A DNA stretch of 64,000 nucleotides from Longimicrobiales bacterium. Lineage in GTDB: Bacteria > Gemmatimonadota > Gemmatimonadetes > Longimicrobiales > RSA9. The position numbers and the translations under genes were made by a program. The notes beneath the pieces are model-generated. The model did not search any database, was not told the DNA's origin, and was given only the letters and a program-made list of their open reading frames with translations. Shown here piece after piece: positions 3,529 through 19,875 of the stretch; positions within the stretch are counted from its first letter, which is position 1; the number at the start of each line of letters is the position of its first letter. The stretch spans positions 6,410-70,409 of the forward strand of contig DASUXU010000014.1 in the NCBI GenBank assembly GCA_036377735.1, given 5' to 3'.

Positions 3529-5475
3529 TTGAACCCGGAAACAGCGCTTCAGGAAGACGGCGAGGCGAAGTACTACCTGCGGGTGACGCTGGTTGTGGGC
3601 GTAGCCCTGGCGGTTGGCGCGCTTCTCCAGTGGCGCGTGCCCGGCGCCCTGCCATGGCGCCATGCCCCATATCTCGTCGCATACCTCGCAGGCGGATACA
3701 GGATCGCGCTGGACAGCTGGACCGAGCTCCGGCACCGGCGTCTCAGCATCGACTTCCTCATGGGCGCCGCGGCCGTCGGCGCCGCGCTCGTCGGCAGCCC
3801 GCTCGAGGGCGTAATCCTGATCTTCCTGTTCAGCCTGTCCAAGGCGCTGGAAGCCTACGCGATGGGCCGCACGCGGCACGCGATCGCCCGTCTCATGGAC
3901 CTGGCGCCCGCGGAGGCCACCCTGAGCGATGAGCAGGGGCGCGCGCTGCGGAAGGTGCCCGTCTCCGAGCTCGAGCCCGGTCAGCTTATTCTCATCCGAC
4001 CCGGCGAGCGGCTGGCCGCGGACGGGTCCGTGAAGTCCGGCCGTTCCGAGGTCGACCAGTCGGCAATCACCGGTGAGTCGGTGCCGGTGCGGAAGGTTTC
4101 AGGCGACGATGTCTTTGCCGGCACCATCAACCAGGGCGGCTCCCTGGTCGTGGCCGTTTCCCGCCACGCGGGCGAGACCATGCTCGCGAAGATCGTACGG
4201 CTGGTCGAGGAAGCGAGAGAGGAGCGCGCACCCGCGCAGCATTTCGTCGATCGCTACGCACACCCGTATACGCTGGCTGTCCTCGGCGCGACCATCCTTG
4301 CCGCTGTCCTGCCTCCAGTCCTGTTCGGCACCGCGTGGAATGCAGCGTTTTACCGCGCGATGACACTGCTCGTGGTCGCGAGTCCCTGCGCCCTCGTGAT
4401 CTCCACACCATCCGCGATCCTGTCCGGCATCGCGAACGGTGCGCGCCATGGCATTCTCTTCAAGGGCGGCGCATTCCTCGACCTGGCCGGCACCATCGAC
4501 ACGATTGCGTTCGACAAGACCGGAACGCTCACGCTCGGTCGGCCGGAGCTCATGGACGTCGTGCTGGCGGATGGCGGCGAGGAGAACGAGATCGTCCGGC
4601 TCGCAGCAGCGGTCGAGCAGGCGTCCGAGCACCACCTCGCTCGTGCAGTCGCGAGCGCGGCGCAGGCGCGCGGCATCGAGATCCCGTTCGCGGAGGGTTT
4701 CTCGTCGCGCGCCGGCGAGGGTGTGGAGGGCGAGCTGGACGGAGTGATGGTCTGGGTTGGCAATGTGCACATGGTCGAACGCCATCAATCGTCGGTACCA
4801 CCGATCGTGCAGGGCTGGACGGCGCAGCAGACGCTGCTCGGCAGGTCCGTCGTCTATGTCGGCAGCGGTGCGGCGTTGCGCGGCGCGATGTCGTTCGGCG
4901 ACACGCTCAAACCCGGCGTTGCCGCCGCCATCCGGCATCTCAAGTATGAGGGCGTGCGCTGGATCACGGTGCTGTCTGGCGACCATCCGGAGGCGGTGCG
5001 CGCCATTGCCGCCGAGATTGGCGCGGATGAGGTACGTGCGGGACTGCTACCGCACGAAAAAGTGGAAGCGCTGCGCGTGCTGCGCGCGAGCTCGAAGGGC
5101 GTCGCCATGGTTGGGGACGGCGTGAATGACGCACCAGCCATGGCCGCATCCACGCTCGGCATCGCCATGGGCGCCATCGGCACGGATGTCGCCATCGAGA
5201 CCGCGGACGTCGTGCTGATGAGTGATGACGTGGGCAAGGTGGATTACGTGATCCATCTCGGAAAGCGAGCGCGGCGGGTGGTGCGTCAGAACGTCTTCTT
5301 CAGTATCGGCTGGATGCTGCTGCTCGTGGTGCTGGCAATTACCATCGGCATACCACTGCCACTCGCCGTAGTCGGTCACGAGGGCAGCACCCTGCTGGTT
5401 GCCGCGAACGGCCTGCGTCTGCTCGGCGGCAAGCCCCACCCGCCCATTGTGCCCGCCGGGCGACGGGCGGGCTGA
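3529..5475 (+). CDS. Heavy-metal P-type ATPase, P1B-4 subtype (Co/Ni/Zn-type exporter), no N-terminal metal-binding domain
   Basis: The motifs seen are TGES, DKTGT and GDGVNDAPA. The TM metal site is SPC (VVASPCALV) together with HEGST in the last helix, which is the P1B-4 signature. There is no Cys or HMA domain in the first 60 aa. The start is uncertain because it lies only 32 nt from the divergent ABC-F start. Confidence 0.88.
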   Translation: MNPETALQEDGEAKYYLRVTLVVGVALAVGALLQWRVPGALPWRHAPYLVAYLAGGYRIALDSWTELRHRRLSIDFLMGAAAVGAALVGSPLEGVILIFLFSLSKALEAYAMGRTRHAIARLMDLAPAEATLSDEQGRALRKVPVSELEPGQLILIRPGERLAADGSVKSGRSEVDQSAITGESVPVRKVSGDDVFAGTINQGGSLVVAVSRHAGETMLAKIVRLVEEAREERAPAQHFVDRYAHPYTLAVLGATILAAVLPPVLFGTAWNAAFYRAMTLLVVASPCALVISTPSAILSGIANGARHGILFKGGAFLDLAGTIDTIAFDKTGTLTLGRPELMDVVLADGGEENEIVRLAAAVEQASEHHLARAVASAAQARGIEIPFAEGFSSRAGEGVEGELDGVMVWVGNVHMVERHQSSVPPIVQGWTAQQTLLGRSVVYVGSGAALRGAMSFGDTLKPGVAAAIRHLKYEGVRWITVLSGDHPEAVRAIAAEIGADEVRAGLLPHEKVEALRVLRASSKGVAMVGDGVNDAPAMAASTLGIAMGAIGTDVAIETADVVLMSDDVGKVDYVIHLGKRARRVVRQNVFFSIGWMLLLVVLAITIGIPLPLAVVGHEGSTLLVAANGLRLLGGKPHPPIVPAGRRAG

Positions 5476-5488
5476 GTCGAACGCGCCT

Positions 5489-6373
5489 TCAGTCCTTCAG
5501 CGACGGCGGGATCAGCAGAACGGGACACGCAGCAGCGCGTGCGACGGCGGACGCGACACTGCCGACAAGCGCGCGTTTGATGAGACCGTAGCCGTGGGTG
5601 CCGAGGACCACGAGATCGACCTTTTCCTCGACGATGACCTGGTTGATCACGGCTGCGGGTGTGTCGCCCCACCGCACTTCTTCCCGGAGATTTACACGCT
5701 CCGCGCCCGCGACGTCCGCAATCGTGTCGCGCACCTCGCCGTGCAGATCCTGGCCGATGACGCCTTCCAGGTCCCCCGAATCCAGCACCTGCGGTATCAC
5801 GTGCAGCACCACGAGCTCCTGGACATCCTGGTCTGCAGCGGGCAGTGACTGCTGCCACTCGAGAGCAAGGTGGAGTGCACCCAGGGCCGGCTCGGACAGG
5901 TCCAGCGGGACGAGCACCCTGCGGAGCGGCAGCGAGAGCGGTGCACGCGCGATCAGCACCGGCACGTCTGCAGTCCTGACGACACGGTCTGCGGTGCTCC
6001 CCAGGAATGGGACCGTGCCGGGCTTTCCGCGGTGCGGCCCCATCACGATGATGTCCGCCTTCACAGCAGCGGCCTGCTCGAGGATCGCCTTGTGTGCGAC
6101 GTAGACCACGACCTCGCAGCTGCTCAGCTTAACTCCCTGCCGCACCGTGCGGGCGACCTGTTCGTCGAGCCGCCTGCGAGCGGCTTCCACCATGTCCGCG
6201 AACGTCAGGCCCACCCGCTTCTGCTCTGTCGGCGAAACCGCGGGGAAGTCGAATGAATGGATCGCGTGGAGTTCGGCGCCGGTCAGTGCGGCAAGCGCAG
6301 CAGCCGTGCGCATGACCTCATCGGAGTCAGCGCTGGCATCGGTTGCGACCAGGATCGATTTGACGGACCTCAT
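5489..6373 (-). CDS. Universal stress protein, tandem UspA domains
   Basis: It contains two USP repeats (ILVATDAS.. and VLVPLDLS..), each ending in a GxxG..G(9)-type ATP-binding stretch (VMGPHRG / VLGTHGYG..GSV). Confidence 0.85.
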   Translation of the reverse strand: MRSVKSILVATDASADSDEVMRTAAALAALTGAELHAIHSFDFPAVSPTEQKRVGLTFADMVEAARRRLDEQVARTVRQGVKLSSCEVVVYVAHKAILEQAAAVKADIIVMGPHRGKPGTVPFLGSTADRVVRTADVPVLIARAPLSLPLRRVLVPLDLSEPALGALHLALEWQQSLPAADQDVQELVVLHVIPQVLDSGDLEGVIGQDLHGEVRDTIADVAGAERVNLREEVRWGDTPAAVINQVIVEEKVDLVVLGTHGYGLIKRALVGSVASAVARAAACPVLLIPPSLKD

Positions 6374-6482
6374 TGCGGCACCTGCCCAACGGGTGAGTGG
6401 GATGATCGCCGCAATCTACCACGTCCCTCAATGCACCGCACAACCCGCCCCGATACCCGCCGGCGGCCCCGATCTTGTACGG

Positions 6483-7715
6483 ATGGTCCACATGGCTGAC
6501 AACGTTACCGCCGTCTTCGGACAGCACGAACCCAATACCCTGGCTCAACTCGAGGACGTCGCATCGCGGGCGGTGCGCGCGGCGCTCATGGCGGACGGCC
6601 ACCAGGGCTATGTCATGCCCATCGGTGGTGTGGCGGCATACCGCAACAGCGCGAGCGTGGTAGGCGTTGGCTTCGACATCGCCTGCGGCAATGCCGCCAT
6701 CCGCACAGACCTCACGCTGGACCATCTCCTGTCGAAGGACCTGGACGCCGTCGCCAGCCAGATACAGCGCTCGGTCAGTTTCGGCGTGGGCCGGACGAAC
6801 GCAAATCGGGACGCCCCCGTCGACCATCCACTCTTCGAGAGCGCCGCCTGGGACGCGATCCCGGGCGCGCACCGCAGTGCGCTCAGGGACAAGGCGCGTG
6901 AGCAGCTCGGAACGGTCGGATCCGGCAACCACTATGTCGATGTGTTCGCGGACGAGAACGACGCTGTCTGGGTCGGTGTTCACTTCGGTTCGCGTGGCCT
7001 GGGTCACACCATCGCGTCCGGGTTCCTCGCACTCTCGCAGAATGAGAAGTGGGGCGCGCGCGCGAAGGAAGCTGAAATTCTGCTGCCGCTCGACGCACCG
7101 ATCGGTCATGACTACTGGACCCTCATGAACCTCGCCGGCGACTACGCGTATGCAGGGCGCGAATGGGTCGCGCGCAAAGTGGTTTCCATCCTCGGCGGTA
7201 CCGAGCAGGAGCTCGTTCACAATCACCACAATTTCGCGTGGCGCGAGCAGCATGACGGTGAGGACCTCATCGTAATCCGGAAGGGTGCAACGCCGGCGTT
7301 CCCAGGTCAGAAGGGGTTCATCGGTGGCAGCATGGGAGACGACGCCGTCATCGTCGAAGGAACAGTCGATTCATCCGAAGAAACCTCGGATCTGCAGCAG
7401 CGCGCGATGTATTCGACGGTGCACGGTGCCGGTCGCGTGATGAGCCGCACCGAAGCGGGTGGCAAGTACAAGGGCTGGGGCCGCAAACGCACACTGGTGC
7501 GTCCGGGCAGGGTGTCGCCCGGGATGATGCGGGACTGGGTAGAGCGTAAAGGCGTGATCCTGCGCGGCGGCGGCCTGGACGAAAGCCCGCATGCCTACCG
7601 CCGCCTCCCCGCCGTGCTCGCGGCGCAGGGCGACACCATCCGCGTCCTGCACACGCTCCGCCCGCTCATCGTCGTGATGGCGGGCGAGAACGAGTTCGAT
7701 CCCTACAAGGACTGA
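6483..7715 (+). CDS. rtcB: RNA-splicing ligase RtcB (3'-phosphate/5'-OH RNA ligase)
   Basis: RtcB motifs are present: MADGHQGYVMPIGGV, GFDIACG, GSGNHY, HFGSRGLGH, HNHHN, RKGA, GGSMG and VHGAGR. The track ORF starting at 6147 overlaps the USP gene. The in-frame ATG at 6483 (or 6492) gives the family-typical length of about 410 aa. Confidence 0.9.
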   Translation: MVHMADNVTAVFGQHEPNTLAQLEDVASRAVRAALMADGHQGYVMPIGGVAAYRNSASVVGVGFDIACGNAAIRTDLTLDHLLSKDLDAVASQIQRSVSFGVGRTNANRDAPVDHPLFESAAWDAIPGAHRSALRDKAREQLGTVGSGNHYVDVFADENDAVWVGVHFGSRGLGHTIASGFLALSQNEKWGARAKEAEILLPLDAPIGHDYWTLMNLAGDYAYAGREWVARKVVSILGGTEQELVHNHHNFAWREQHDGEDLIVIRKGATPAFPGQKGFIGGSMGDDAVIVEGTVDSSEETSDLQQRAMYSTVHGAGRVMSRTEAGGKYKGWGRKRTLVRPGRVSPGMMRDWVERKGVILRGGGLDESPHAYRRLPAVLAAQGDTIRVLHTLRPLIVVMAGENEFDPYKD

Positions 7716-7963
7716 TCGTCTGGATCAGGCTCGGCGCGGGTGACGATGACGCGCCAGGTCTCGGGGCCCTGCTCCAGGTAGTCGAACGTGAAGCCGGTGT
7801 CGCCGCGGGTCGCGCGCAGTGTGTAGTACATGCACTGCGGATCGTGATCGACGGTAAGCTGCATCGACTCTCCTACGGCAAGCGCCTCGTAGGCGCCCAT
7901 GATCATGTCATAGCGGTCCTTCGGCGGGACCGGTCGGACATCCACATCTGTCATTGTCGGCAT
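7703..7963 (-). CDS. DUF2249 domain protein
   Basis: It shows the canonical DUF2249 pattern VRPVPPKDRYDMI..LTVDHDPQCMYY..FDYLEQGPETWRVIVTR. Its ATG at 7963 directly abuts the stop (7964-7966) of the upstream gene. Confidence 0.78.
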   Translation of the reverse strand: MPTMTDVDVRPVPPKDRYDMIMGAYEALAVGESMQLTVDHDPQCMYYTLRATRGDTGFTFDYLEQGPETWRVIVTRAEPDPDDQSL

Positions 7964-8656
7964 TTACGCACTTCCGCTGTGAATGGGAATGACTGCCTGA
8001 TTGCCGGCCTTGCTGCCGCAGCCCCAGCCGCCGCGCCGCCCGAGCCACGCGGCCCATGCAACGCGATACGACGGTGAGCTGGGGGTGAGAATGAGCGGCG
8101 CATCATAGCAGGCGACGGTGAGAGTGCGCATCAGCGCGCCGATGCCCTTCCCCTCCTGCATGGCCGACTCGGGGCCGCCACCGACCAGCCTTACGTATTC
8201 GATGCCTGCGCGCCCAAGAATGCGGGTCGCGTCATCCGCGGGATGCGCGCAGGTGGCATCGACCTGCCACGCGAACCTCACCTGCGTGGCTATCACTGTT
8301 TCCAGCCACTTCTCGACCGGACCGCGTACGAGGACGAGAGCCTCACCGCCTCGGGAGGTAATTGCCCGAACGCGTTCGATCCGCTCGCTCAGCTCGCACG
8401 CGTCAGCAACGATGACCGGTGTGGCAGTGACACGGGCGAGCGCCGACAGAGACGGAGCATCGTCAGAGTCATGACTGAGCAGACCGGAAATGCGGACGCC
8501 ATGATCGAGAGACGCCACGATTTCGCGTGCGAGCTGATAAACGTCCTCATGTCCCACGACGATCTCGAGCGCCGACAGCCCACGGGCGCTGCACGCGCTC
8601 ACCAGCTCGGCTACGGAGGCGCCCGGTGCCGCTGCCGAGCTCAACCCCAGTTGCAT
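7964..8656 (-). CDS. Hypothetical protein (possibly a degenerate TIM-barrel/xylose-isomerase-like fold), sandwiched between two DUF2249 genes
   Basis: The ORF has coding-like high third-position GC. I prefer the ATG at 8656 because it forms a TGATG junction with the upstream DUF2249 stop; the longer start at 8689 remains possible. I could not recognise any catalytic motif. The fold guess rests only on an alternating beta/alpha-like pattern. Confidence 0.5.
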   Translation of the reverse strand: MQLGLSSAAAPGASVAELVSACSARGLSALEIVVGHEDVYQLAREIVASLDHGVRISGLLSHDSDDAPSLSALARVTATPVIVADACELSERIERVRAITSRGGEALVLVRGPVEKWLETVIATQVRFAWQVDATCAHPADDATRILGRAGIEYVRLVGGGPESAMQEGKGIGALMRTLTVACYDAPLILTPSSPSYRVAWAAWLGRRGGWGCGSKAGNQAVIPIHSGSA

Positions 8657-8898
8657 CAGTCGGCGGTCCGGCTGATCTGCACCCGCCACACGGACGGGCC
8701 CTGCTCCAGGTAGTCCCAGCCGAATTTGCCGGCGTGCTCGTACTCGAACTGATAGCGCAGCGGCTTCGGGTCATGGTCATTCACCAGCACGAACGCCTCG
8801 CCGGCCGACAGCGACTTGAACGTGTCGAAGATCGTCGGGTGCTTTTCCCGGGGCGGGATGACGCGCACATCGAGGACGCGCTGTTCTGTATTCATCAC
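8656..8898 (-). CDS. DUF2249 domain protein
   Basis: It carries the canonical signature LDVRVIPPREKHPTIFDTF..LVNDHDPKPLRYQF..WDYLEQGPSVWRVQISR. Confidence 0.8.
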   Translation of the reverse strand: MMNTEQRVLDVRVIPPREKHPTIFDTFKSLSAGEAFVLVNDHDPKPLRYQFEYEHAGKFGWDYLEQGPSVWRVQISRTAD

Positions 8899-8910
8899 GA
8901 TAGCTTCCTT

Positions 8911-9762
8911 TCAGGTTGCCGCGATGCGGCTGATGAAGAGCCGGACGACGTCGCCCTGCTCACGGATGTCGTAGGAAAAGCCGCGCTCCTCGAGCAGTGG
9001 CAGGAGGAACTTCGGTACGCGGATGTTGATCTGAACGAGGGTCCCGCCTGCAGGCAGCTCCTCGAGCGCGGCCAGGGTCCGGATCATCGGCTCCGGCGGC
9101 TCGAGGCCGCGCACGTCCAGCACGACCACGCCGTCGTCATTGTCGTTCGATGTCCCATCTCCCAGCGTTGAAACTGCGTCCGGGGCAGCCGAAGCAGATG
9201 CTTCAGGCGACCGCGTATCTGCATAGAACCAGACAACCCAGTCGTCTTCGGCGCGCCGTTCGGTCCAGTGTGCCAGGTGCTGCTTCTGCATCACCGCGTA
9301 CAGCGGCACCGGCTCGAACGTCGCGCGGACACACAGCGCTCCGCCGGGCTTCACGGTCGCGCGCGCCGCCATGATGATGCTGAACGGCTCACGCCCCGCG
9401 CGCAGCTCCTCGCGTACGTCCGCCGTGACGATCATGTCCGGGGAGATACGCGCGAGCGCAGCGGGCCGGACTCCGCTCGAGGTGTCGTCGGAGTGAGTCG
9501 CATCAACATGGATTCCGACCGAAGAGTCCGGCGTTGTCGAAGGCGTGTCCGCCGTCGCATGACCATTCAAACGGTCGAGCAGCGTATCGATCTCCACACC
9601 ACCCATGCGCGCGGCCTGCTCGACCGTGACCAGGCGGGTCATCACTTTGCGCATCGCGGGATTGCGCAGCCGCTCGAATATGGGTGACAGCGAGGTGAAC
9701 ACGTCGATGAGCGATTCGTTCGCCGCAAGCACGGCCGACACGCGGTCACTGGCTCGGATCAC
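8911..9762 (-). CDS. DUF1858 (RIC/ScdA N-domain-like) fused to two DUF2249/TusA-like modules
   Basis: The N-terminus ([55 protein letters not shown]) is DUF1858-like. The middle module is [31 protein letters not shown]. The C-terminal module is [27 protein letters not shown]. The GTG start at 9762 forms a GTGA overlap with the DUF59 stop and has GGAGAG upstream. Confidence 0.65.
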
Positions 9763-10046
9763 CAGGCACTCTCCTGAATTGCCGCCGGCGACCAGGCCGG
9801 CTCCCACACCAGGATCGGCTGCACGTCCACCACGCCGGGAACCTGCCCCACCGCCTGCACGATGGCGTTCGTTATGTATTCCTCCATCGGACAGCCGTGC
9901 GTGGTCAGTGTGTAGGTGATCGCTACGCTGCCGTCGTCTGCCGTTACATCATAGACGAGACCGAGCGTAACGATATTCAGGCCGATCTCCGGATCGATCA
10001 CCGTGCGCAGTGCCTCGCGCACTTCGCCCTCGAGGATCAGGTTCAT
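9759..10046 (-). CDS. DUF59 / SufT-like Fe-S assembly family protein
   Basis: The sequence is [26 protein letters not shown]...[13 protein letters not shown], which is MIP18/DUF59 with the conserved Cys. Only the last ~95 aa of track ORF 9759..10898 is real. The ATG at 10046 forms an ATGA overlap with the upstream stop; an alternative ATG lies at 10061. Confidence 0.8.
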
Positions 10047-11299
10047 GGTCGCATTCTCCATAGCATGAACATCTGCGTGGACTCCGTCGCCGCGCCGGCG
10101 AGCATGAGCAGGGCGCCCGCGCGTGCGACCGGTGCGCTGGCGTGCGGTACGCCGACAATGAGCGTCAGTGCGCCCGTGGCCAGCAGCCCCGCCGCGGCAA
10201 ACGCGGTACGCACGGAATAGAGCTCGTTCACGCGTGGCACCGGCCGCTTCCCGGCCAGCGGGCCGAAGCGGTGATACCACACGAGGAACGGCACGATCTT
10301 GAAGTAGTGCGCCGCGACGAACAGCGAGATCGCCAGCAGCACCGTCATGATGTATGCGACGGCGATGTTGGCGTTGGCACCACTGACGATCACCGGCCAC
10401 GCGAAGATCAGCGCGAGGGCGAGAATGCCGAGCGCCCCGGCGGCGAGCCGCATGCCGGGATCGAGCGCGCGTCGGTGACGGTGGCGGTAGAAGGACCGCG
10501 CCTGCAGCAGGAACGCGATGCAGCCGAGGGCAATCAGGAGTGCGGGCAGCCAGCGGCCGACCAGCGGCGGACCGTGATGCACGAACGCAAGCAGTGCGGC
10601 GCCGGTCGCGATCAGGGCAACAGCAGCCTTTGCGAAGTGATCCTTTGCACCGTGGCTCAGCAGGAACATCGGCAGCAGCCGGTGCGCGACGCCCACCATC
10701 ACGAGCAGGACCCAGCCCGCCAGCGCGACGTGCATGTGCACGCCCAGCGCAGTCATCCGGTTTGCCCCGAGATAGCCCCAGCGCAGGTTGCCGGCGAGCG
10801 CGAGCCCGAGCACCAGCGTGACCGTCAGGAAGAAGACGGCGCAGGCGAGCGCGTACCACGTCACGTCGCGCTTCGTCGCGCGATGCAGCGTCGCGCACAT
10901 GTTGCCGATGAACAGCAGCACACCGGTCCCGAACAGGGCCGCGCCCGGAAGCATCAGCAGCGGGTGGCCCGTGCCGAGACCCGTGACGAAGAGCAGCAAT
11001 CCCGGCACGTACAGAATCAGCGTCGCATATGCCAGCCGGACGGAGCGGATCGGCTGACCCAGTGCGACCGGGAGGAACTGGTACAGCGCGCCCATGATCG
11101 ACGTCGTGATCCAGCCCAGCGTGAACAGGTGCGTGGTTGCAGTAAGGCGAGGGTCGAGATAGGAAGCAGCGGCGAGCTCATGCGCGTGCACCACCAGCGA
11201 TGTGATGCCGATCAGCAGAAAAACGAGGGCCGCAGCAAAATGGCTGCCGGGCAGCGTTCCAGGCGGGGCCTTCGCTGCGGCACTCACGGCGGCACTCAC
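10043..11299 (-). CDS. Polytopic (about 12 TM) histidine-rich membrane protein, heme-copper-oxidase-subunit-I-like or NnrS-like (tentative)
   Basis: It is hydrophobic throughout. Conserved-looking His motifs sit in TM helices ([38 protein letters not shown]). The GTG at 11299 forms a GTGA overlap with the regulator stop. I rejected the Arg-rich 50-aa extension in the track ORF. Confidence 0.7.
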
Positions 11300-12000
11300 G
11301 CGGGAATGCGGTACGAGCAGGAACGGTCGCCTGCCGGAATGTAGGCCAGCCTGGTAAGCGGCTCGCCCAGCAGCTCGCGAATGAACCCCAGCTCCGCGCG
11401 GCACGGCACGCGGCTCACGTCCACCAGGTCGCGCAGCGGGCAGTGACACAGGTGGAGCATCGGCGCGTCCTTCGCTTCGACCGCCTCGACCGCTCCGGTC
11501 GGCGTCGAGGACGCCATGAAGCCTAGCTCGGACAGGATCGCAGCCACCTCCGCTACGCGCGCATCCCCGGTCAGCCCCTCCACGCGCGCATGCGCCGCCG
11601 CGCGACGCGCGCCGATATAGCTGTCGAAGAACTCTTCCAGCACCCCTTCGGTGCCGCTCGACTTCAGGTACTGCGCGAGCGCCCGAAGCACTTCCCCCTC
11701 CCGGCGGGGAAACAGGTTCTCGGCGGCCGCCGTGAGACCGTAAACGATCTCGGGACGCCCCGCCCGCCGGATCCGAGTACCCCGGCGGAACGCGTAGCCG
11801 TGGCTCTCCAGCGCCCGCAGATGGTGGCGCACCGTCTCCACGTTCAGGCCTACCCGCGTGGCCAGGTCCGGAATCGTGCTGTCACCGCCCCGCTTCAGCG
11901 CTTCCAGCACCTGCACCTGGCTCCGCGACAGACCGGGCGCCTCGATCGAGGGTGCCGGAGTCTGCTGGCGACGGGGTTCCGCGGCTTTCGAGTCTCTCAT
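11296..12000 (-). CDS. Winged-HTH transcriptional regulator (ArsR/COG2345, SufR-like) with C-terminal Cys cluster
   Basis: The wHTH region is VLEALKRGGDSTIPDLATRVGLNVETVRHHLRALESHGY. The C-terminal motif is C-H-C-x12-C ... C (LHLCHCPLRDLVDVSRVPC...DRSCSY). The start is the ATG at 12000 (MRDSKAAEP). Confidence 0.75.
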   Translation of the reverse strand: MRDSKAAEPRRQQTPAPSIEAPGLSRSQVQVLEALKRGGDSTIPDLATRVGLNVETVRHHLRALESHGYAFRRGTRIRRAGRPEIVYGLTAAAENLFPRREGEVLRALAQYLKSSGTEGVLEEFFDSYIGARRAAAHARVEGLTGDARVAEVAAILSELGFMASSTPTGAVEAVEAKDAPMLHLCHCPLRDLVDVSRVPCRAELGFIRELLGEPLTRLAYIPAGDRSCSYRIPA

Positions 12001-12027
12001 GATTCCAAGATGACCGGTCTGCTCCGG

Positions 12028-12053
12028 ATTATCAAGAGGATGTTCTTGACAAT
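12028..12053. promoter_or_regulatory. Imperfect 26-bp palindrome (ATTATCAAGAGGA/TGTTCTTGACAAT), a candidate operator in the divergent regulator/bla intergenic region
   Basis: 10 of 13 positions are self-complementary, with the core TCAAGA-n6-TCTTGA. It overlaps a TTGACA hexamer (12046-12051). It lies 28 nt upstream of the regulator start codon. Confidence 0.3.
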
Positions 12054-12128
12054 GGGCCGTGCGGTCGGCGGGCTGGCTTGATATCGTGAGCAGTGAAGCC
12101 CTGACAGCCATGAACCCTGGAGCGGCGA

Positions 12129-13055
12129 ATGCTCACAACCCTGCTGACGGCAACCCTGCTGGCCGTGTCCGGACCGACGCCTTTACAGCCGAACGCGTTC
12201 AATGCGACGGCGGACACCGCGCGGCTGAGAGCGTCGATCATGCGGCTGGTGGATGCACACCAGGGGACGGTTGGTGTGAGCGTCCGGAACCTTGCGACGG
12301 GGGAATCGCTTTCAATCCGGGGCGACGAGACGTTCCCGACCCAATCCACTATCAAGGTGTCGCTGCTGGTGGCGCTGCTGGACGAGGTTCAGAAGGGGCG
12401 TGTGCGGCTGGAGGAGCGGACCGGTCTTATCGACCGTGACAAGGTTGGGGGAACGGGTGTGCTGCGCTTCATGTCGTCCGGCACCCTGCCCACGATGGCG
12501 GACCTGGCCTGGCTCATGATCACATTGTCGGACAACACCGCGACGAACCTGCTGCTCGACAAGATCGACGCCCGCACGGTGGGCGTGAAGATGGAAGCGC
12601 TGGGGCTGCCGCACACGAAGATCCACTCGAAGACGTTCCGCCGCGAGACATCGATCGCGCCGGACTCCTCGAGGCTGTACGGCCTCGGGGTGACCACGCC
12701 GAACGAGATGGTGGAGCTGTTCGCGCTGCTGAGCGCCGGTCGCGCCGTGTCGCCCGCCATGGATTCCCTGGCGATGCGCATGCTCGCGGCCAACCAGGAC
12801 GACGCGATGATGACGCGCTGGTTGCCGGGCAATACTCGCGTCGCGAACAAGACCGGCACCGGCGAGGATTCTCGAATCGACTGCGGCGTGATGTTCTCAC
12901 CCGCCGCGCCGCTCGCATTGTGCGTGATGACGAAAGGCAACGCCGATACATCCTACGCAGTCGACAACGCCGCGCACCTGGTGATCGGCAGTATCGCGCG
13001 GACGGTGTTCGCGCATTACAACCCGGGGGTGGCGTTGCCGGCGTTACCCAGGTAA
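12129..13055 (+). CDS. Class A beta-lactamase family serine hydrolase
   Basis: The class A motifs occur in the correct order: S-x-x-K (QSTIKV), SDN (LSDNTATN), an omega-loop Glu candidate (RRETS) and KTG (NKTGTG). The N-terminus is hydrophobic and signal-like. Confidence 0.8.
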   Translation: MLTTLLTATLLAVSGPTPLQPNAFNATADTARLRASIMRLVDAHQGTVGVSVRNLATGESLSIRGDETFPTQSTIKVSLLVALLDEVQKGRVRLEERTGLIDRDKVGGTGVLRFMSSGTLPTMADLAWLMITLSDNTATNLLLDKIDARTVGVKMEALGLPHTKIHSKTFRRETSIAPDSSRLYGLGVTTPNEMVELFALLSAGRAVSPAMDSLAMRMLAANQDDAMMTRWLPGNTRVANKTGTGEDSRIDCGVMFSPAAPLALCVMTKGNADTSYAVDNAAHLVIGSIARTVFAHYNPGVALPALPR

Positions 13056-15746: not shown

Positions 15747-15820
15747 CACCCTGGAAATGCGCCCGGCTGGATTCGAACCAGCGGCCCTCGGTTTAGGAAA
15801 CCGATGCTCTATCCACCTGA
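15747..15820 (-). tRNA. tRNA-Arg (anticodon CCT)
   Basis: The reverse complement folds as a cloverleaf: acceptor GCGCCCG/CGGGCGC, D stem GCTC/GAGC, anticodon stem TCGGT/ACCGA with loop TT-CCT-AA, and T stem GCTGG/CCAGC with loop TTCGAAT. The discriminator is A. No 3' CCA is encoded. Confidence 0.9.
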
Positions 15821-15983
15821 GCTACGGGCGCTCGAGCCATCAATGTAACACGCGGCCTCACCTCTTTCGAGGTCGGCGCATGGTCAGCTTGTCCGCCCGC
15901 CGAACCGCGGCATAGATTGCCGTTCGGCACACCGTACGTGCGGGCTTCATCGGATGGGCCGAACCTCCAGGATCCGGATTCCC

Positions 15984-17876: not shown

Positions 17877-18493
17877 CGGTCGCGGCCGCGCGCTCCCAGG
17901 GCGAGCACCATCGCCAGGAGCGCGATTGCCAGCGCACCGAGCGACACGAACAGCGGCAGCTTCGCCGGGTTGCCGCTGTCCGTGTCTTCTGTCGCATCAG
18001 AAGCCGTATCCGAGCCGTTCGTGGCAGCAGACGCGTCGCCGACAGCAGTCACGGACGCCGGCTTGTCCGACCCGGGCGCGCCGGTCCACTCGACGCGCTC
18101 GCCGTCCGCATACGTCTGATATGCCGGCCACGTGATCTGTGCGGCCTCACGCGGATTCACGGCAATGAATGGAAACTCGACGAACCGCGCGGGCGCGAGC
18201 GTACCGGTCCATGACGCGCCGATGATGCGCTGCGCGGAATCCTTCTGCACTTCGAGCGCCCAGCCTTCCACGTCACCGAACGAGACCACAGTGACATTCG
18301 CCGGAAACCGGATCTCGACGCGCGTCGTCGCGATGTCGCGCTCGTTCGGAACGCGCAGCACGTAACGTTCGTACGCGCCGGGTTTTGCAGCCGCCGGATA
18401 AACCACTGCATGAGCCAGTACCTGTGATGCTGCAACCGCCATCAGCGCGAGCAGCAGCCCGGGAGGAAGCATGCGACGGATACGTTCACTCAT
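17873..18493 (-). CDS. ycnI: YcnI/DUF1775 family copper-binding protein with C-terminal TM anchor
   Basis: Signal cleavage at ..VLA-HAVVYP would expose an N-terminal His. The protein has the DUF1775 core (YERYVLRVPNERD), a Thr/Ser/Asp linker and a TM tail. Its start forms an ATGA overlap with the CopCD stop (18490-18493). Confidence 0.8.
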   Translation of the reverse strand: MSERIRRMLPPGLLLALMAVAASQVLAHAVVYPAAAKPGAYERYVLRVPNERDIATTRVEIRFPANVTVVSFGDVEGWALEVQKDSAQRIIGASWTGTLAPARFVEFPFIAVNPREAAQITWPAYQTYADGERVEWTGAPGSDKPASVTAVGDASAATNGSDTASDATEDTDSGNPAKLPLFVSLGALAIALLAMVLALGARGRDR

Positions 18494-19875
18494 GGCATTA
18501 CCATCGACTGGAGAGAGTCAGCAGCGGCCGGGCTTTCCGGCGGCGACGTGTATGCGAGCGCGCCCGCGAGCAGGAACGCCAGTACGATTACGACGACCTC
18601 GAGGACCACCGTCCGCCGCAGCCGGTCCACCGCCTCGCCTCGCAGTACGGCGGGCAGGTTCCGGAACTTGTTGATCGCGCCCATCGCAATCAGCACCACG
18701 AGCACGCCCGCCTTCGCAAGGGACAGCACACCGTATTTCGTCGTGAGGATCTGCCCGGGCGTGAGCAGAACGAGGGACTGCGCCACGCCGGAGGCCGCGA
18801 GCAGGACCACACCGATCAATGCGACGGTGGACACGCGCAGCGCAGTATCCGCGATGACCGTGGCCTCGACGTGAGGCGGCGTCCGGCGCAGCAGCACCAG
18901 CAGCCCGCCGAGCCACATGGCGGCGGCGGCAAGGTGGACGGCCTTGAGCGGCAGCAGGAGCAGCGGATGGATCGCCGCTGCATGGCCGATCGCAACGGTG
19001 GCAAAGAGAGCGAGCCACGCGAACGCCGTCGCCCACGCGATCCGGCGGGTGATGACCACGCACGCGAGTGCGATCAGCGTGAACACGACGCGCGCGATCT
19101 CCGCGCGCGCCGCGGCCGTCCCGAGTGCGCGCATACTCGACCCCGGCGCGTCCCCCGTCGCATAGAAGGACCACGCCACTGCGTGCGCCGCCGACAGCAG
19201 GAACGCGCCCGCGGCGAGCCAGGTCAGCAGGCCGTGCGTGTCGCGGCGGCGCTCTTCGTCCGTGCGCCAGCCGATGAATGCGAGCAGGCCCGCGGTCGCG
19301 AGGATGAAGAAAGCGGCAGCCGCACGCAGCATGGCAGGCAGCACCGGTACCTCGGGCCACGCCTCGAGGCGCTCATGCTCTACCTGAGCCGCGTCCCGTG
19401 CGGAGTCCACCGTCGCACCTGAGACCGGTGGCGTCAGCGCCGGAGTCGCCGCGGAATCGGCGGTGGCCGTGTCTCCCTCCACAGTGAATGCGAACGAGCC
19501 GTCGACGGGATGACCGTCGGCTGACACCACGTGCCACACCACGCTGTATTTCCCTGCCCCGCCGCTGAGCCAGTCGGACAGCGCCGCGTGCACGTCACGG
19601 CCGTCCGCACGCACGCGCAGCTGCCTCGCCACGCCGTCCGGTCCGGTGATCGTGATGGTGGCGAGCGATGCCTCGATCGGCTCACTGAACACCAGACGTA
19701 CGGGTATGTGCACGCCCGGACGGAGTATGGTATCTGCGGCGGGCGTGGAGGACAGCAGACGCGTGTGCGCGCTGGCGGGCGATGCAATGGCGAGAACGGC
19801 CAGCGTGCACAGCGTTAGGAGCCCCGCGAGCCGGAACAGCCGGCCCGCGGTGGGAACGAGTGTCAGTGCTGCCAT
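18490..19875 (-). CDS. CopC-CopD fusion protein (YcnJ-like copper transporter)
   Basis: Signal cleavage at ..ASA-HTRLLSSTP is followed by a CopC domain with the SADGHPV motif. A multi-TM CopD domain of about 330 aa follows. The gene overlaps the TonB-receptor stop by 13 nt. Confidence 0.85.
   Translation of the reverse strand: MAALTLVPTAGRLFRLAGLLTLCTLAVLAIASPASAHTRLLSSTPAADTILRPGVHIPVRLVFSEPIEASLATITITGPDGVARQLRVRADGRDVHAALSDWLSGGAGKYSVVWHVVSADGHPVDGSFAFTVEGDTATADSAATPALTPPVSGATVDSARDAAQVEHERLEAWPEVPVLPAMLRAAAAFFILATAGLLAFIGWRTDEERRRDTHGLLTWLAAGAFLLSAAHAVAWSFYATGDAPGSSMRALGTAAARAEIARVVFTLIALACVVITRRIAWATAFAWLALFATVAIGHAAAIHPLLLLPLKAVHLAAAAMWLGGLLVLLRRTPPHVEATVIADTALRVSTVALIGVVLLAASGVAQSLVLLTPGQILTTKYGVLSLAKAGVLVVLIAMGAINKFRNLPAVLRGEAVDRLRRTVVLEVVVIVLAFLLAGALAYTSPPESPAAADSLQSMVMP

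Follow-up and report, generated by a model that had tools for sequence, protein, structure and literature searches.

Attention was drawn in 2005 and 2014 to proteins of the DUF2249 family, whose COG number we take to be COG4309, and to non-canonical homologs of oxidases that are encoded next to denitrification genes, but no function has been assigned to them. Proteins of both types are encoded in a seven-gene block (g1 to g7, positions 7703-12000, minus strand) in a 64-kb stretch of DNA from a Longimicrobiales bacterium of the Gemmatimonadota (contig DASUXU010000014.1), the whole of which is called the window here. COG4309 genes are co-transcribed with nor genes in rhizobia and beta-proteobacteria under the control of NnrR or NsrR, and were proposed by comparative genomics to be relevant for nitric oxide (NO) reductase (Rodionov et al. 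2005, PMC1274295). The DUF2249 genes of Haloferax are induced under denitrification and one of them is fused to a P-loop iron-sulfur (Fe-S) carrier within the nar operon (2024, PMC11218638), in a paper which cites Pei et al. 2014 for a link between DUF2249 and the superfamily of heme-copper oxidases (HCO). The closest described genetics come from Thermus thermophilus, where drpAB sits downstream of narCGHJIKT and anoxia together with nitrate induces both proteins, DrpA and DrpB (Chahlafi et al. 2018, PMC6282519). DrpB is membrane-associated though it has no transmembrane (TM) segment, and the double mutant contains normal levels of nitrate reductase protein with little activity. The nar and dnr promoters become constitutive when DrpB is lost, and their nitrate dependence disappears with the loss of both proteins. 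In that publication drpAB is presented as bicistronic, and the oxidase-like and DUF59 genes that lie downstream are not discussed (PMC6282519).

An earlier reading of the window, made from its sequence only, had held that no operon of this composition was characterised as a system. This stands for the unit as a whole, although parts of it were known before, namely COG4309 with nor (2005; PMC1274295), HCO homologs near DUF2249 genes (2014, through PMC11218638), the genetics of DrpA and DrpB (2018; PMC6282519) and the haloarchaeal induction (2024). Our literature search, which was not exhaustive, found no description of a coupled or fused unit of an HCO-like protein, DUF59 and DrpB (with or without DrpA), including in Thermus, nor of a four-cysteine regulator with its operator or of an add-on made of a TIM barrel with a Cys-bearing tail and a Cys-type DUF2249 protein.

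We describe the block as the Gemmatimonadota version of a widespread, cross-phylum module consisting of an oxidase-like membrane protein (g2), a DUF59 protein and DrpB- and DrpA-type proteins, to which g6, g7 and the regulator g1 have been added. The reading that we prefer, held tentatively and with not quite even confidence, is that this module is linked to NO and denitrification and protects, repairs or matures iron-containing centres.

The seven-gene operon and its products

Seven minus-strand open reading frames (ORFs) fill positions 7703-12000 of the window, which has a G+C content of 64-68%. Start and stop codons were recomputed from the sequence, and the seven ORFs and six junctions were found where the sequence-only reading had placed them. 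All of its domain calls were also supported when Pfam was run on each ORF. The window proteins are 'hypothetical proteins' in the deposited annotation. The genes are as follows:

11296-12000, minus strand: g1, winged helix-turn-helix (wHTH) regulator of 234 amino acids (aa), first gene, with ATG start and TGA stop
10043-11299, minus strand: g2, 12-TM homolog of the HCO superfamily, 418 aa with 18 His, GTG start
9759-10046, minus strand: g3, DUF59/FeS_assembly_P protein, 95 aa
8911-9762, minus strand: g4, DrpB-like protein, 283 aa, with DUF1858 and two DUF2249 modules
8656-8898, minus strand: g5, DrpA-like single DUF2249 protein, 80 aa
7964-8656, minus strand: g6, TIM-barrel protein, 230 aa, xylose-isomerase-like fold
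7703-7963, minus strand: g7, stand-alone DUF2249 protein of a distinct subtype, 86 aa

The genes are packed with hardly any intervening sequence. The GTG start of g2 overlaps the stop of g1 as GTGA, followed by an ATGA overlap between g2 and g3, a GTGA overlap between g3 and g4, a 12-nt gap holding a Shine-Dalgarno-like AAGGAAG between g4 and g5, a TGATG overlap between g5 and g6, and finally a TAA abutting the ATG of g7 (TAAATG). Motifs resembling GGAG or GGAAG are located within the 3' ends of the preceding genes. In the deposited annotation the start of g2 is placed four codons further on (414 aa; P0001), and with that start an 8-nt gap would stand in place of the GTGA overlap, but seven of 18 regulator/g2 junctions in relatives are 4-nt overlaps. 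The TGATG junction is confirmed by the homologs of g6, as their Met1 and MRLGLSS N-terminus are invariant (alignment A4). A sigma-70 consensus scan of 7400-12300 found no promoter, and a terminator scan of the same region gave two terminator-like matches, both within chance. The packing and the lack of above-chance internal promoter or terminator matches argue for a single mRNA covering g1 to g7. Judged from gene order here and elsewhere, the seven-gene block is a real operon whose arrangement lies far beyond chance, because its neighbours recur in 83 related loci and the g2/g3 overlap in 41 of 42; the proposal of a tightly coupled, conserved unit with its own regulator is supported in this way.

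The central component is g2, for which structure prediction and Foldseek, as had been suggested for 10043-11299, returned the HCO/NO reductase (NOR) fold. Its description as a His-rich protein with 12 TM segments holds, although it is not an anonymous polytopic protein but a homolog of the HCO superfamily by fold and profile. The AlphaFold2 model built from 47 homologs has a predicted local distance difference test (pLDDT) score of 90.4 and 12 helices, and the top 22 Foldseek matches in the PDB are all catalytic subunits of HCO or NOR enzymes (probability 1.0, TM-score 0.61-0.76), among them cbb3 CcoN (TM-score 0.73), cNOR NorB, aa3, ba3 and qNOR. At the level of the fold, with three four-helix units in 12 TM segments, g2 belongs to this superfamily, while the Pfam COX1 model stays sub-threshold (24.8 bits, cut-off 34.8). 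When g2, g4, g5 and g6 were searched singly against PDB sequences the results were of no use, and only the profile and fold searches worked. The g2 family is large: at E<=1e-3 it counts 1995 cluster representatives (clusters at 50% identity).

In a profile of the diverse g2 family, TM1-3 are in register with Pseudomonas aeruginosa NorB and H57 is aligned onto the TM2 heme-b histidine in RMVHTNLL. An even better, but out-of-register, alignment of this profile is obtained with TM9-12 of CcoN, where H57 coincides with the second His of the TM10 HVH motif. In summary, g2 shares with NorB and CcoN the overall fold (TM-score 0.64-0.73), a TM2 His in the NorB register and cytoplasmic termini as predicted, but it differs from them in its low identity (about 12-15%), in scores under the Pfam and NCBIfam thresholds and in missing the full set of six histidines. 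NorB and CcoN also have the partner subunits NorC and CcoO/P, whereas the window operon has none of these.

The conservation of the histidines depends on the depth of the alignment. Only H57 (TM2) and H188 (TM6) are invariant family-wide (diverse alignment A1), whereas in the Gemmatimonadota clade (alignment A3) H20, H57, H188, H190, H216 and H343 are invariant and H91, H241, H242 and H331 are conserved in at least 90%. The canonical set (TM2, TM6, a TM7 pair and the TM10 HxH) is incomplete in g2, since TM10 carries a single His (H331), present in the close clade only and replaced by Met or Gln elsewhere. With the NorB ligand numbering that we presume for this comparison, the clade-conserved His 57, 188/190, 241-242 and 331 follow the canonical TM2/TM6/TM7/TM10 order and spacing. 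These extra canonical-position histidines are the main reason to consider g2 as a divergent NO (or O2) reductase, with the soluble proteins acting as assembly factors or as donors of electrons or iron. The fold itself, the clustering of g2 homologs with NirK, a source of NO, and the presence of heme A synthase and CopD near some loci are consistent with catalysis. Nevertheless, a catalytic detoxifier seems improbable to us, given that the family as a whole keeps only two invariant histidines, that Thermus, rhizobial and low-GC members have lost the TM7 pair and the TM10 His, that the TM10 HxH is never complete, and that neither a cytochrome c or CuA-type subunit nor a recognisable quinol site accompanies the sub-threshold COX1 match.

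A protein with the fold of g2 is probably the heme-binding membrane core of the module, heme being the presumed cofactor. Both termini are predicted to be cytoplasmic, and for the C-terminus this follows from the positive-inside pattern of the loops together with HCO topology. The clade-invariant H20, H216 and H343 are found at the predicted cytoplasmic ends of helices, where soluble partners would dock, and they could form a metal site on the cytoplasmic face.

The nearest relatives in kind may be the three-unit 'HCO homology' (HCOH) proteins of Pei et al. 2014, which reportedly include NnrS and carry two family-wide His. As this description goes, they resemble g2 in the 12-TM HCO fold, the two family-wide His, the denitrification or NO context and the DUF2249 neighbours, and the first four helices of g2 resemble the last four of canonical oxidases. 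Unlike NnrS, g2 has no match to the NnrS Pfam model PF05940 at E<=0.01. The same search detects a true NnrS (E 2e-113) near the Sinorhizobium meliloti homolog of g2, and since this NnrS lies only a few genes from that homolog, the two are distinct proteins.

The soluble products fall into known families. The call of g3 as a DUF59 protein with the conserved Cys of a GCP motif is borne out by its match to PF01883 (FeS_assembly_P/DUF59; E 1e-19, 71 bits, cut-off 23.5) and by Cys52, which is conserved and sits in HGCP; the NCBIfam equivalogs SUF_assoc, SufT and PaaD all score g3 under their cut-offs. Pfam divides g4 into DUF1858 and two DUF2249 domains. This protein is DrpB-like, as it matches T. 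thermophilus DrpB over 95% of its length (tblastn, 34% identity, E 1e-29) and the two share an identical set of three Pfam domains. Likewise g5 is DrpA-like (64% identity to Thermus DrpA over 69 residues, E 1e-34). Pfam agrees that g5 (E 1e-30) and g7 (E 2e-20) are stand-alone DUF2249 proteins, and the two differ in their motifs: g5 has conserved K-H and NDHDP motifs with no Cys (58 homologs), whereas g7 represents a subtype marked by DHDP-x-CMYY with a conserved Cys44 (consensus of 30 homologs). The DUF1858 domain of g4 had been taken for the N-domain of RIC; the fusion with two DUF2249 modules is real, but the RIC N-domain is ScdA_N (PF04405). DUF1858 (PF08984) and ScdA_N are related families, so that g4 begins with a relative of the RIC N-domain. 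No ScdA_N or hemerythrin match was found by Pfam in any of the seven proteins, and the operon accordingly differs from RIC/YtfE/ScdA in having no hemerythrin di-iron domain.

A sulfur relay of the TusA kind, which had also been proposed for the DUF2249 modules, is unlikely. There is a weak match to the TusA Pfam model (30.5 bits) on residues 214-278 of g4, the second DUF2249 module, but in this most TusA-like module the CPxP position reads EPPEP. None of the four DUF2249 modules has a Cys at the active-site position of TusA, the single Cys of g4 and of g7 lying elsewhere and g5 being Cys-free, and we rejected a TusA sulfurtransferase identity for them on this ground.

The remaining protein is g6, which had been listed as a 230-aa protein without recognisable motif. 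It indeed has no Pfam, NCBIfam or PDB sequence match, and Pfam searches of 50 family members gave scattered noise matches only, none of them to PF01261. However, it need not stay anonymous: modelling of 7964-8656 and a Foldseek search, as suggested earlier, gave a TIM barrel. The AlphaFold2 model (pLDDT 90.0) shows an eight-fold beta-alpha pattern and matches 3lmz, 7vpf and 4xsl, putative sugar isomerases or epimerases, at TM-scores of about 0.6. Residues E31, W130, E163 and S193-S194 are conserved at strand ends, and the small family (273 matches) ends in an invariant C-terminal W..WLGRRGGWGCGS tail (alignment A4). Residues 212-226 of the tail have pLDDT values below 50 and are predicted to be disordered. 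The tail carries Cys (W..WLGRRGGWGCGS, residues 201-215 of the window g6), and the neighbouring g7 has its own conserved Cys; a thiol- or metal-based hand-off between the two is conceivable from these sequences.

Recurrence of the module in other genomes

Whether the gene order recurs outside this genome was a point on which the proposal of a functional unit could have failed, and the recurrence turned out to be clear. A scan with the closer-subset alignment A2 of a collection holding one genome per species confirmed at least 569 matches of the g2 family. The genome set examined (n=83) comprises the best 80 of these at least 569 loci and three others. At least five named phyla occur in this set. 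Most are Gemmatimonadota, and Thermoleophilia, Gaiellales, Labilithrix, Kofleriaceae, Polyangiales, Acidobacteriota and Bacillota are also represented. Neighbours were counted by a phmmer screen of all ORFs, and the counts are lower bounds with many contigs ending early. A DrpB-like gene lies beside g2 in 79 of the 83 loci, DUF59 in 67-70 and a DrpA-type DUF2249 gene in 58. The other window genes are less frequent (g6 in 27 loci, the g7 type in 30 and a SufR-like regulator beside g2 in 26). Eight loci contain NirK-like genes (E<1e-50), whose best NCBIfam match is Cu nitrite reductase at E 1e-56 though under its cut-off, and six contain full-length RIC, which scores above the equivalog cut-off. 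Cupins, 4-TM COX1-like proteins, CopD, heme A synthase and cytochrome c were seen as well.

The coupling of the genes recurs with their order. The 4-nt overlap of g2 and g3 was found in 41 of 42 loci and that of g3 and g4 in about 30 of 40. Either g5 or g4 precedes g6 with overlaps of 1 or 4 nt; at the g5/g6 junction such an overlap occurs in 16 of 20 loci and the other four have gaps of 1-4 nt. Wherever the contig continues g7 comes after g6, mostly with a 4-nt overlap (22 junctions scored). The core of the module is composed of the oxidase-like protein, DUF59 and the DrpB-like protein, usually with a DrpA-like protein, and it was found in Gemmatimonadota, Actinomycetota, Myxococcota, Acidobacteriota, Bacillota, Thermus, rhizobia and a low-GC lineage.

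The low-GC branch (80 metagenome loci, 27-55% GC) shows a permuted order of the trio, DrpB > g2 > DUF59, in 71-72 of the 80 loci, and a DrpB-like gene adjoins g2 in 71 of the 80. RIC is found beside the trio in 26-27 loci, and it carries an N-terminal DUF2249 in this branch, giving the Pfam architecture DUF2249-ScdA_N-Hemerythrin in 26-28 loci (for example L093 4170-5138 and L160 7686-8651, both low-GC metagenome contigs). RIC/YtfE/ScdA is therefore a recurrent neighbour of the module as well as a fusion partner of the DrpA-type DUF2249. Other natural fusions join DUF59 to the C-terminus of g2 homologs in three representatives of 50%-identity clusters (P0092, P0198 and P0238) and g2, DUF2249 and ScdA_N in one cluster representative. 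The suspected link to NO and to damage of iron centres is thus backed by NirK-like, RIC, NnrS and Thermus nar neighbours and by the DUF2249-RIC fusions, all in other genomes.

Small proteins of about 145-150 aa, with four TM segments and a weak match to COX1, also flank many clusters, as in L002 (5526-5972 and 12295-12750) and L085 (9798-10232). They look like single-unit HCO homologs that could trimerise, and one of them matches g2 itself (E 3e-6).

The Thermus locus of the drp genes belongs to the same family of arrangements. On the T. thermophilus plasmid pTthSNM6-6b the order is narGHJI, two transporters, drpA, drpB, a 144-aa 4-TM COX1-like gene, a protoglobin, a gene for a 383-aa protein and DUF59 (drp-downstream stretch at L085 9798-12584), with the same layout on T. 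parvatiensis pTP143 (L167). The 383-aa 'hypothetical protein' is a full-length homolog of g2 (32% identity, E 5e-28) and its gene is overlapped by DUF59 by 4 nt. The start of the 4-TM gene overlaps the drpB stop by 1 nt, and the protoglobin has a ThiS/SAMP-like C-terminus. Given these genes downstream of drpB, the 'bicistronic' drpAB may head a six-gene unit, and polar effects of the mutations are possible. The Thermus and window loci thus have in common the DrpA- and DrpB-type proteins and a g2 homolog followed by DUF59. They differ in gene order, and the Thermus locus has no SufR-like regulator, TIM barrel or third DUF2249. In Thermus the drp locus comes right after the nitrate reductase operon, on its downstream side, whereas the window operon does not adjoin nar genes.

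On the S. meliloti 2011 plasmid pSymA the genes for a g2 homolog (29% identity, E 3e-17), for a protein with two DUF2249 modules and for DUF59 form a trio between hemN and nnrS-nirK (L086 7600-9790, about 687066-689256 of the record), which is unannotated in the PLSDB table. Other rhizobial plasmids also carry a g2-like/DUF2249/DUF59 trio. This placement fits that of COG4309 by Rodionov et al. 2005 (PMC1274295). A literature search for S. meliloti SMa1255-1262 and for DUF59 with denitrification and nitric oxide found no paper. The rhizobial trio differs from the window operon in a DrpB-like protein without DUF1858 and in regulation by the FNR-type NnrR, and the rhizobial stretch showed neither a stand-alone DrpA nor a TIM barrel nor a regulator of the SufR type.

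The regulator g1 and its candidate operator

The Pfam matches of g1 (HTH_24, HTH_5 and MarR_2) are those of a wHTH protein, and its C-terminal cysteines (C185-H-C187, C200 and C228) reproduce the CHC-x12-C...C pattern noted earlier. These four Cys are found in 29-31 of 31 homologs from related loci. The earlier assignment to the SufR type stands for the architecture, since g1 shares with SufR (COG2345) the N-terminal wHTH, the C-terminal Cys cluster and a position upstream of the presumed target genes. It does not stand as an equivalog assignment: the SufR model TIGR02702 aligns over its full length but with 41.9 bits against a cut-off of 178.8, and no suf genes were found among the window flank genes examined. 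On this architecture g1 is probably an Fe-S-sensing autorepressor. A second, paralogous Cys-containing regulator, in which G/S-C replaces C-H-C, is encoded divergently at the far end of some clusters (L002 12758-13474; also L008, L027, L059 and L060).

A candidate operator was located at 12028-12053, where an imperfect palindrome, ATTGTCAAGA-N6-TCTTGATAAT, lies 28-53 nt upstream of the g1 ATG. It was found once in the window and its downstream arm includes a -35-like TTGATA. In related loci, palindromes of the TTATCAAGG-N6-CCTTGACAAT type lie immediately upstream of the regulator gene, or instead of the RIC or cupin gene where either of these heads the cluster (for example in L006, L009, L010, L011, L014, L015, L016, L019, L024, L027 and L033). 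Their right arm usually includes TTGACA, so that a bound protein would occlude the -35 box. The exact core TCAAGA-N6-TCTTGA was found in none of 86 other loci, and the looser conserved element TCAAG-N8-CTTGA with extended arms gave 30 matches against 8-20 in shuffles, modestly above chance. The case for an operator is accordingly built on the extended consensus and the position and not on the match count. As a phylogenetic footprint the palindrome points to autoregulation by g1, with the binding and the signal sensed as presumptions. The site of SufR is CAAC-N6-GTTG, different from the candidate operator TTATCAAGG-N6-CCTTGACAA.

The SufR-like regulator, together with DUF59 (SufT family) and the weak TusA match in g4, might suggest a general SUF-type Fe-S biogenesis system or a TusA-like sulfur relay unrelated to nitrogen oxides. 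We consider this very improbable. Neither sufBCDSE nor a cysteine desulfurase gene was found in the window flanks, nor in the related loci as far as their annotated genes were inspected; every NCBIfam model specific to SUF remains under its cut-off, the DUF2249 modules have no TusA active-site Cys and the recurrent neighbours are N-oxide genes. A SUF operon was rejected for the absence of suf genes.

A more serious rival, though in our judgement still an unlikely one, is a signal-transduction module in which g2 would be a heme receptor for NO, O2 or nitrate/nitrite and DrpA/DrpB would relay the signal to a transcription factor, g1 in this operon and DnrS/DnrT in Thermus, for which the Thermus authors put forward such a model of nitrate sensing. 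The constitutive nar and dnr promoters upon loss of DrpB and the removal of nitrate dependence upon loss of both proteins speak for it (PMC6282519), as do the many loci in which a regulator is encoded together with g2 and coupled to it in translation, and the protoglobin, a typical sensor domain, inside the Thermus cluster. However, DUF59, the RIC fusions and the TIM barrel are not signalling parts, and the regulator is adjacent in only 26 of 83 loci against near-universal DUF59 and DrpB-like genes. In addition, the loss of enzyme activity at normal protein levels in the Thermus double mutant points to maturation, and we infer that polar effects on the downstream g2 and DUF59 genes are not excluded by the Thermus study.

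Proposed function and genomic neighbourhood

Protection, repair or maturation of iron centres, the reading that we prefer, is favoured by the NirK, Nar, NnrS and above all RIC neighbours, the DUF2249-RIC fusions and the Thermus drpAB phenotype, as well as by the fusion of DUF2249 to an Fe-S carrier in the nar operon of Haloferax (PMC11218638). In the mechanism that we propose, g1 would carry an Fe-S cluster on its four Cys and repress the operon through the palindrome over the -35 region, as its architecture and the operator suggest, and damage to the cluster by NO or oxidants would release the repression. With both termini in the cytoplasm, g2 would lie in the membrane and use H57 and H188 to bind one or more hemes; a second metal may be held, in this clade, at the positions that track the CuB/FeB histidines. 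DUF59, DrpB and DrpA would dock on its cytoplasmic face as partners of fixed stoichiometry, which is suggested by the conserved translational coupling and the natural fusions. Such an assembly would protect, repair or mature the Fe-S, non-heme iron and possibly heme or copper centres of N-oxide reductases and other NO-sensitive enzymes, and it may work next to the di-iron repair protein RIC or substitute for it. The TIM barrel g6, with its Cys-bearing tail, and the Cys-bearing g7 would together form a lineage-specific add-on.

A more specific form of this proposal, in which DrpA, DrpB and DUF59 are cytoplasmic subunits of a hitherto unrecognised membrane complex of the HCO superfamily that works with or replaces RIC under nitric oxide, is possible but more doubtful. 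If it holds, the 'nitrate sensor' phenotypes of Thermus would be consequences of losing the complex, and the complex would span bacteria from Thermus and Gemmatimonadota to rhizobia, keeping the iron centres of N-oxide respiration functional.

Several points weigh against this interpretation. DUF59 and DUF2249 have, to our knowledge, no demonstrated chemistry. The conserved His of g2 lie towards the outer face while its proposed partners are cytoplasmic, and the Fe-S cluster of g1 is an assumption made from cysteine conservation. A marker scan of the window found no nirK, nor, RIC, cupin or 4-TM partner (a nar marker was not included), so that the link to nitrogen oxides comes wholly from other genomes; the flank genes examined, which lie up to about 10 kb to each side, included no nar genes. 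Lastly, a periplasmic location was reported for DrpA of Thermus, at odds with a cytoplasmic complex, and the authors of that work read the drpAB phenotypes as nitrate sensing (PMC6282519).

The module is present in tractable organisms, namely T. thermophilus and S. meliloti (pSymA), and an annotation gap is turned here into a testable hypothesis on the protection of metal enzymes in denitrifiers and NO-exposed bacteria, with relevance to N2O and NO emissions, rhizobial symbiosis and NO stress. Our comparison suggests that the Thermus drpAB studies are worth revisiting with the downstream genes in mind.

Among the flank genes of the operon are those for RtcB, a tandem Usp protein, a P-type ATPase, an ABC-F protein and a beta-lactamase-like protein. 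On gene content we rejected a defence system and a mobile element, with no library of defence or mobile elements searched. The additional features of the window are as follows:

6147-7715, plus strand: RtcB RNA ligase gene, convergent with the operon and overlapping the 3' end of g7 by 13 nt
5489-6373, minus strand: tandem-Usp gene
3529-5475, plus strand: P-type ATPase with SPC motif
18490-19875, minus strand: CopC-CopD fusion protein
15758-15831, minus strand: tRNA-Arg(CCT), the only Rfam or ARAGORN match in the window

The longest RtcB ORF overlaps the tandem-Usp gene by about 230 nt, for which reason the true RtcB start is probably further downstream. Both the P-type ATPase and the CopC-CopD fusion protein are encoded within 10 kb of the operon, which places metal-handling genes near it.

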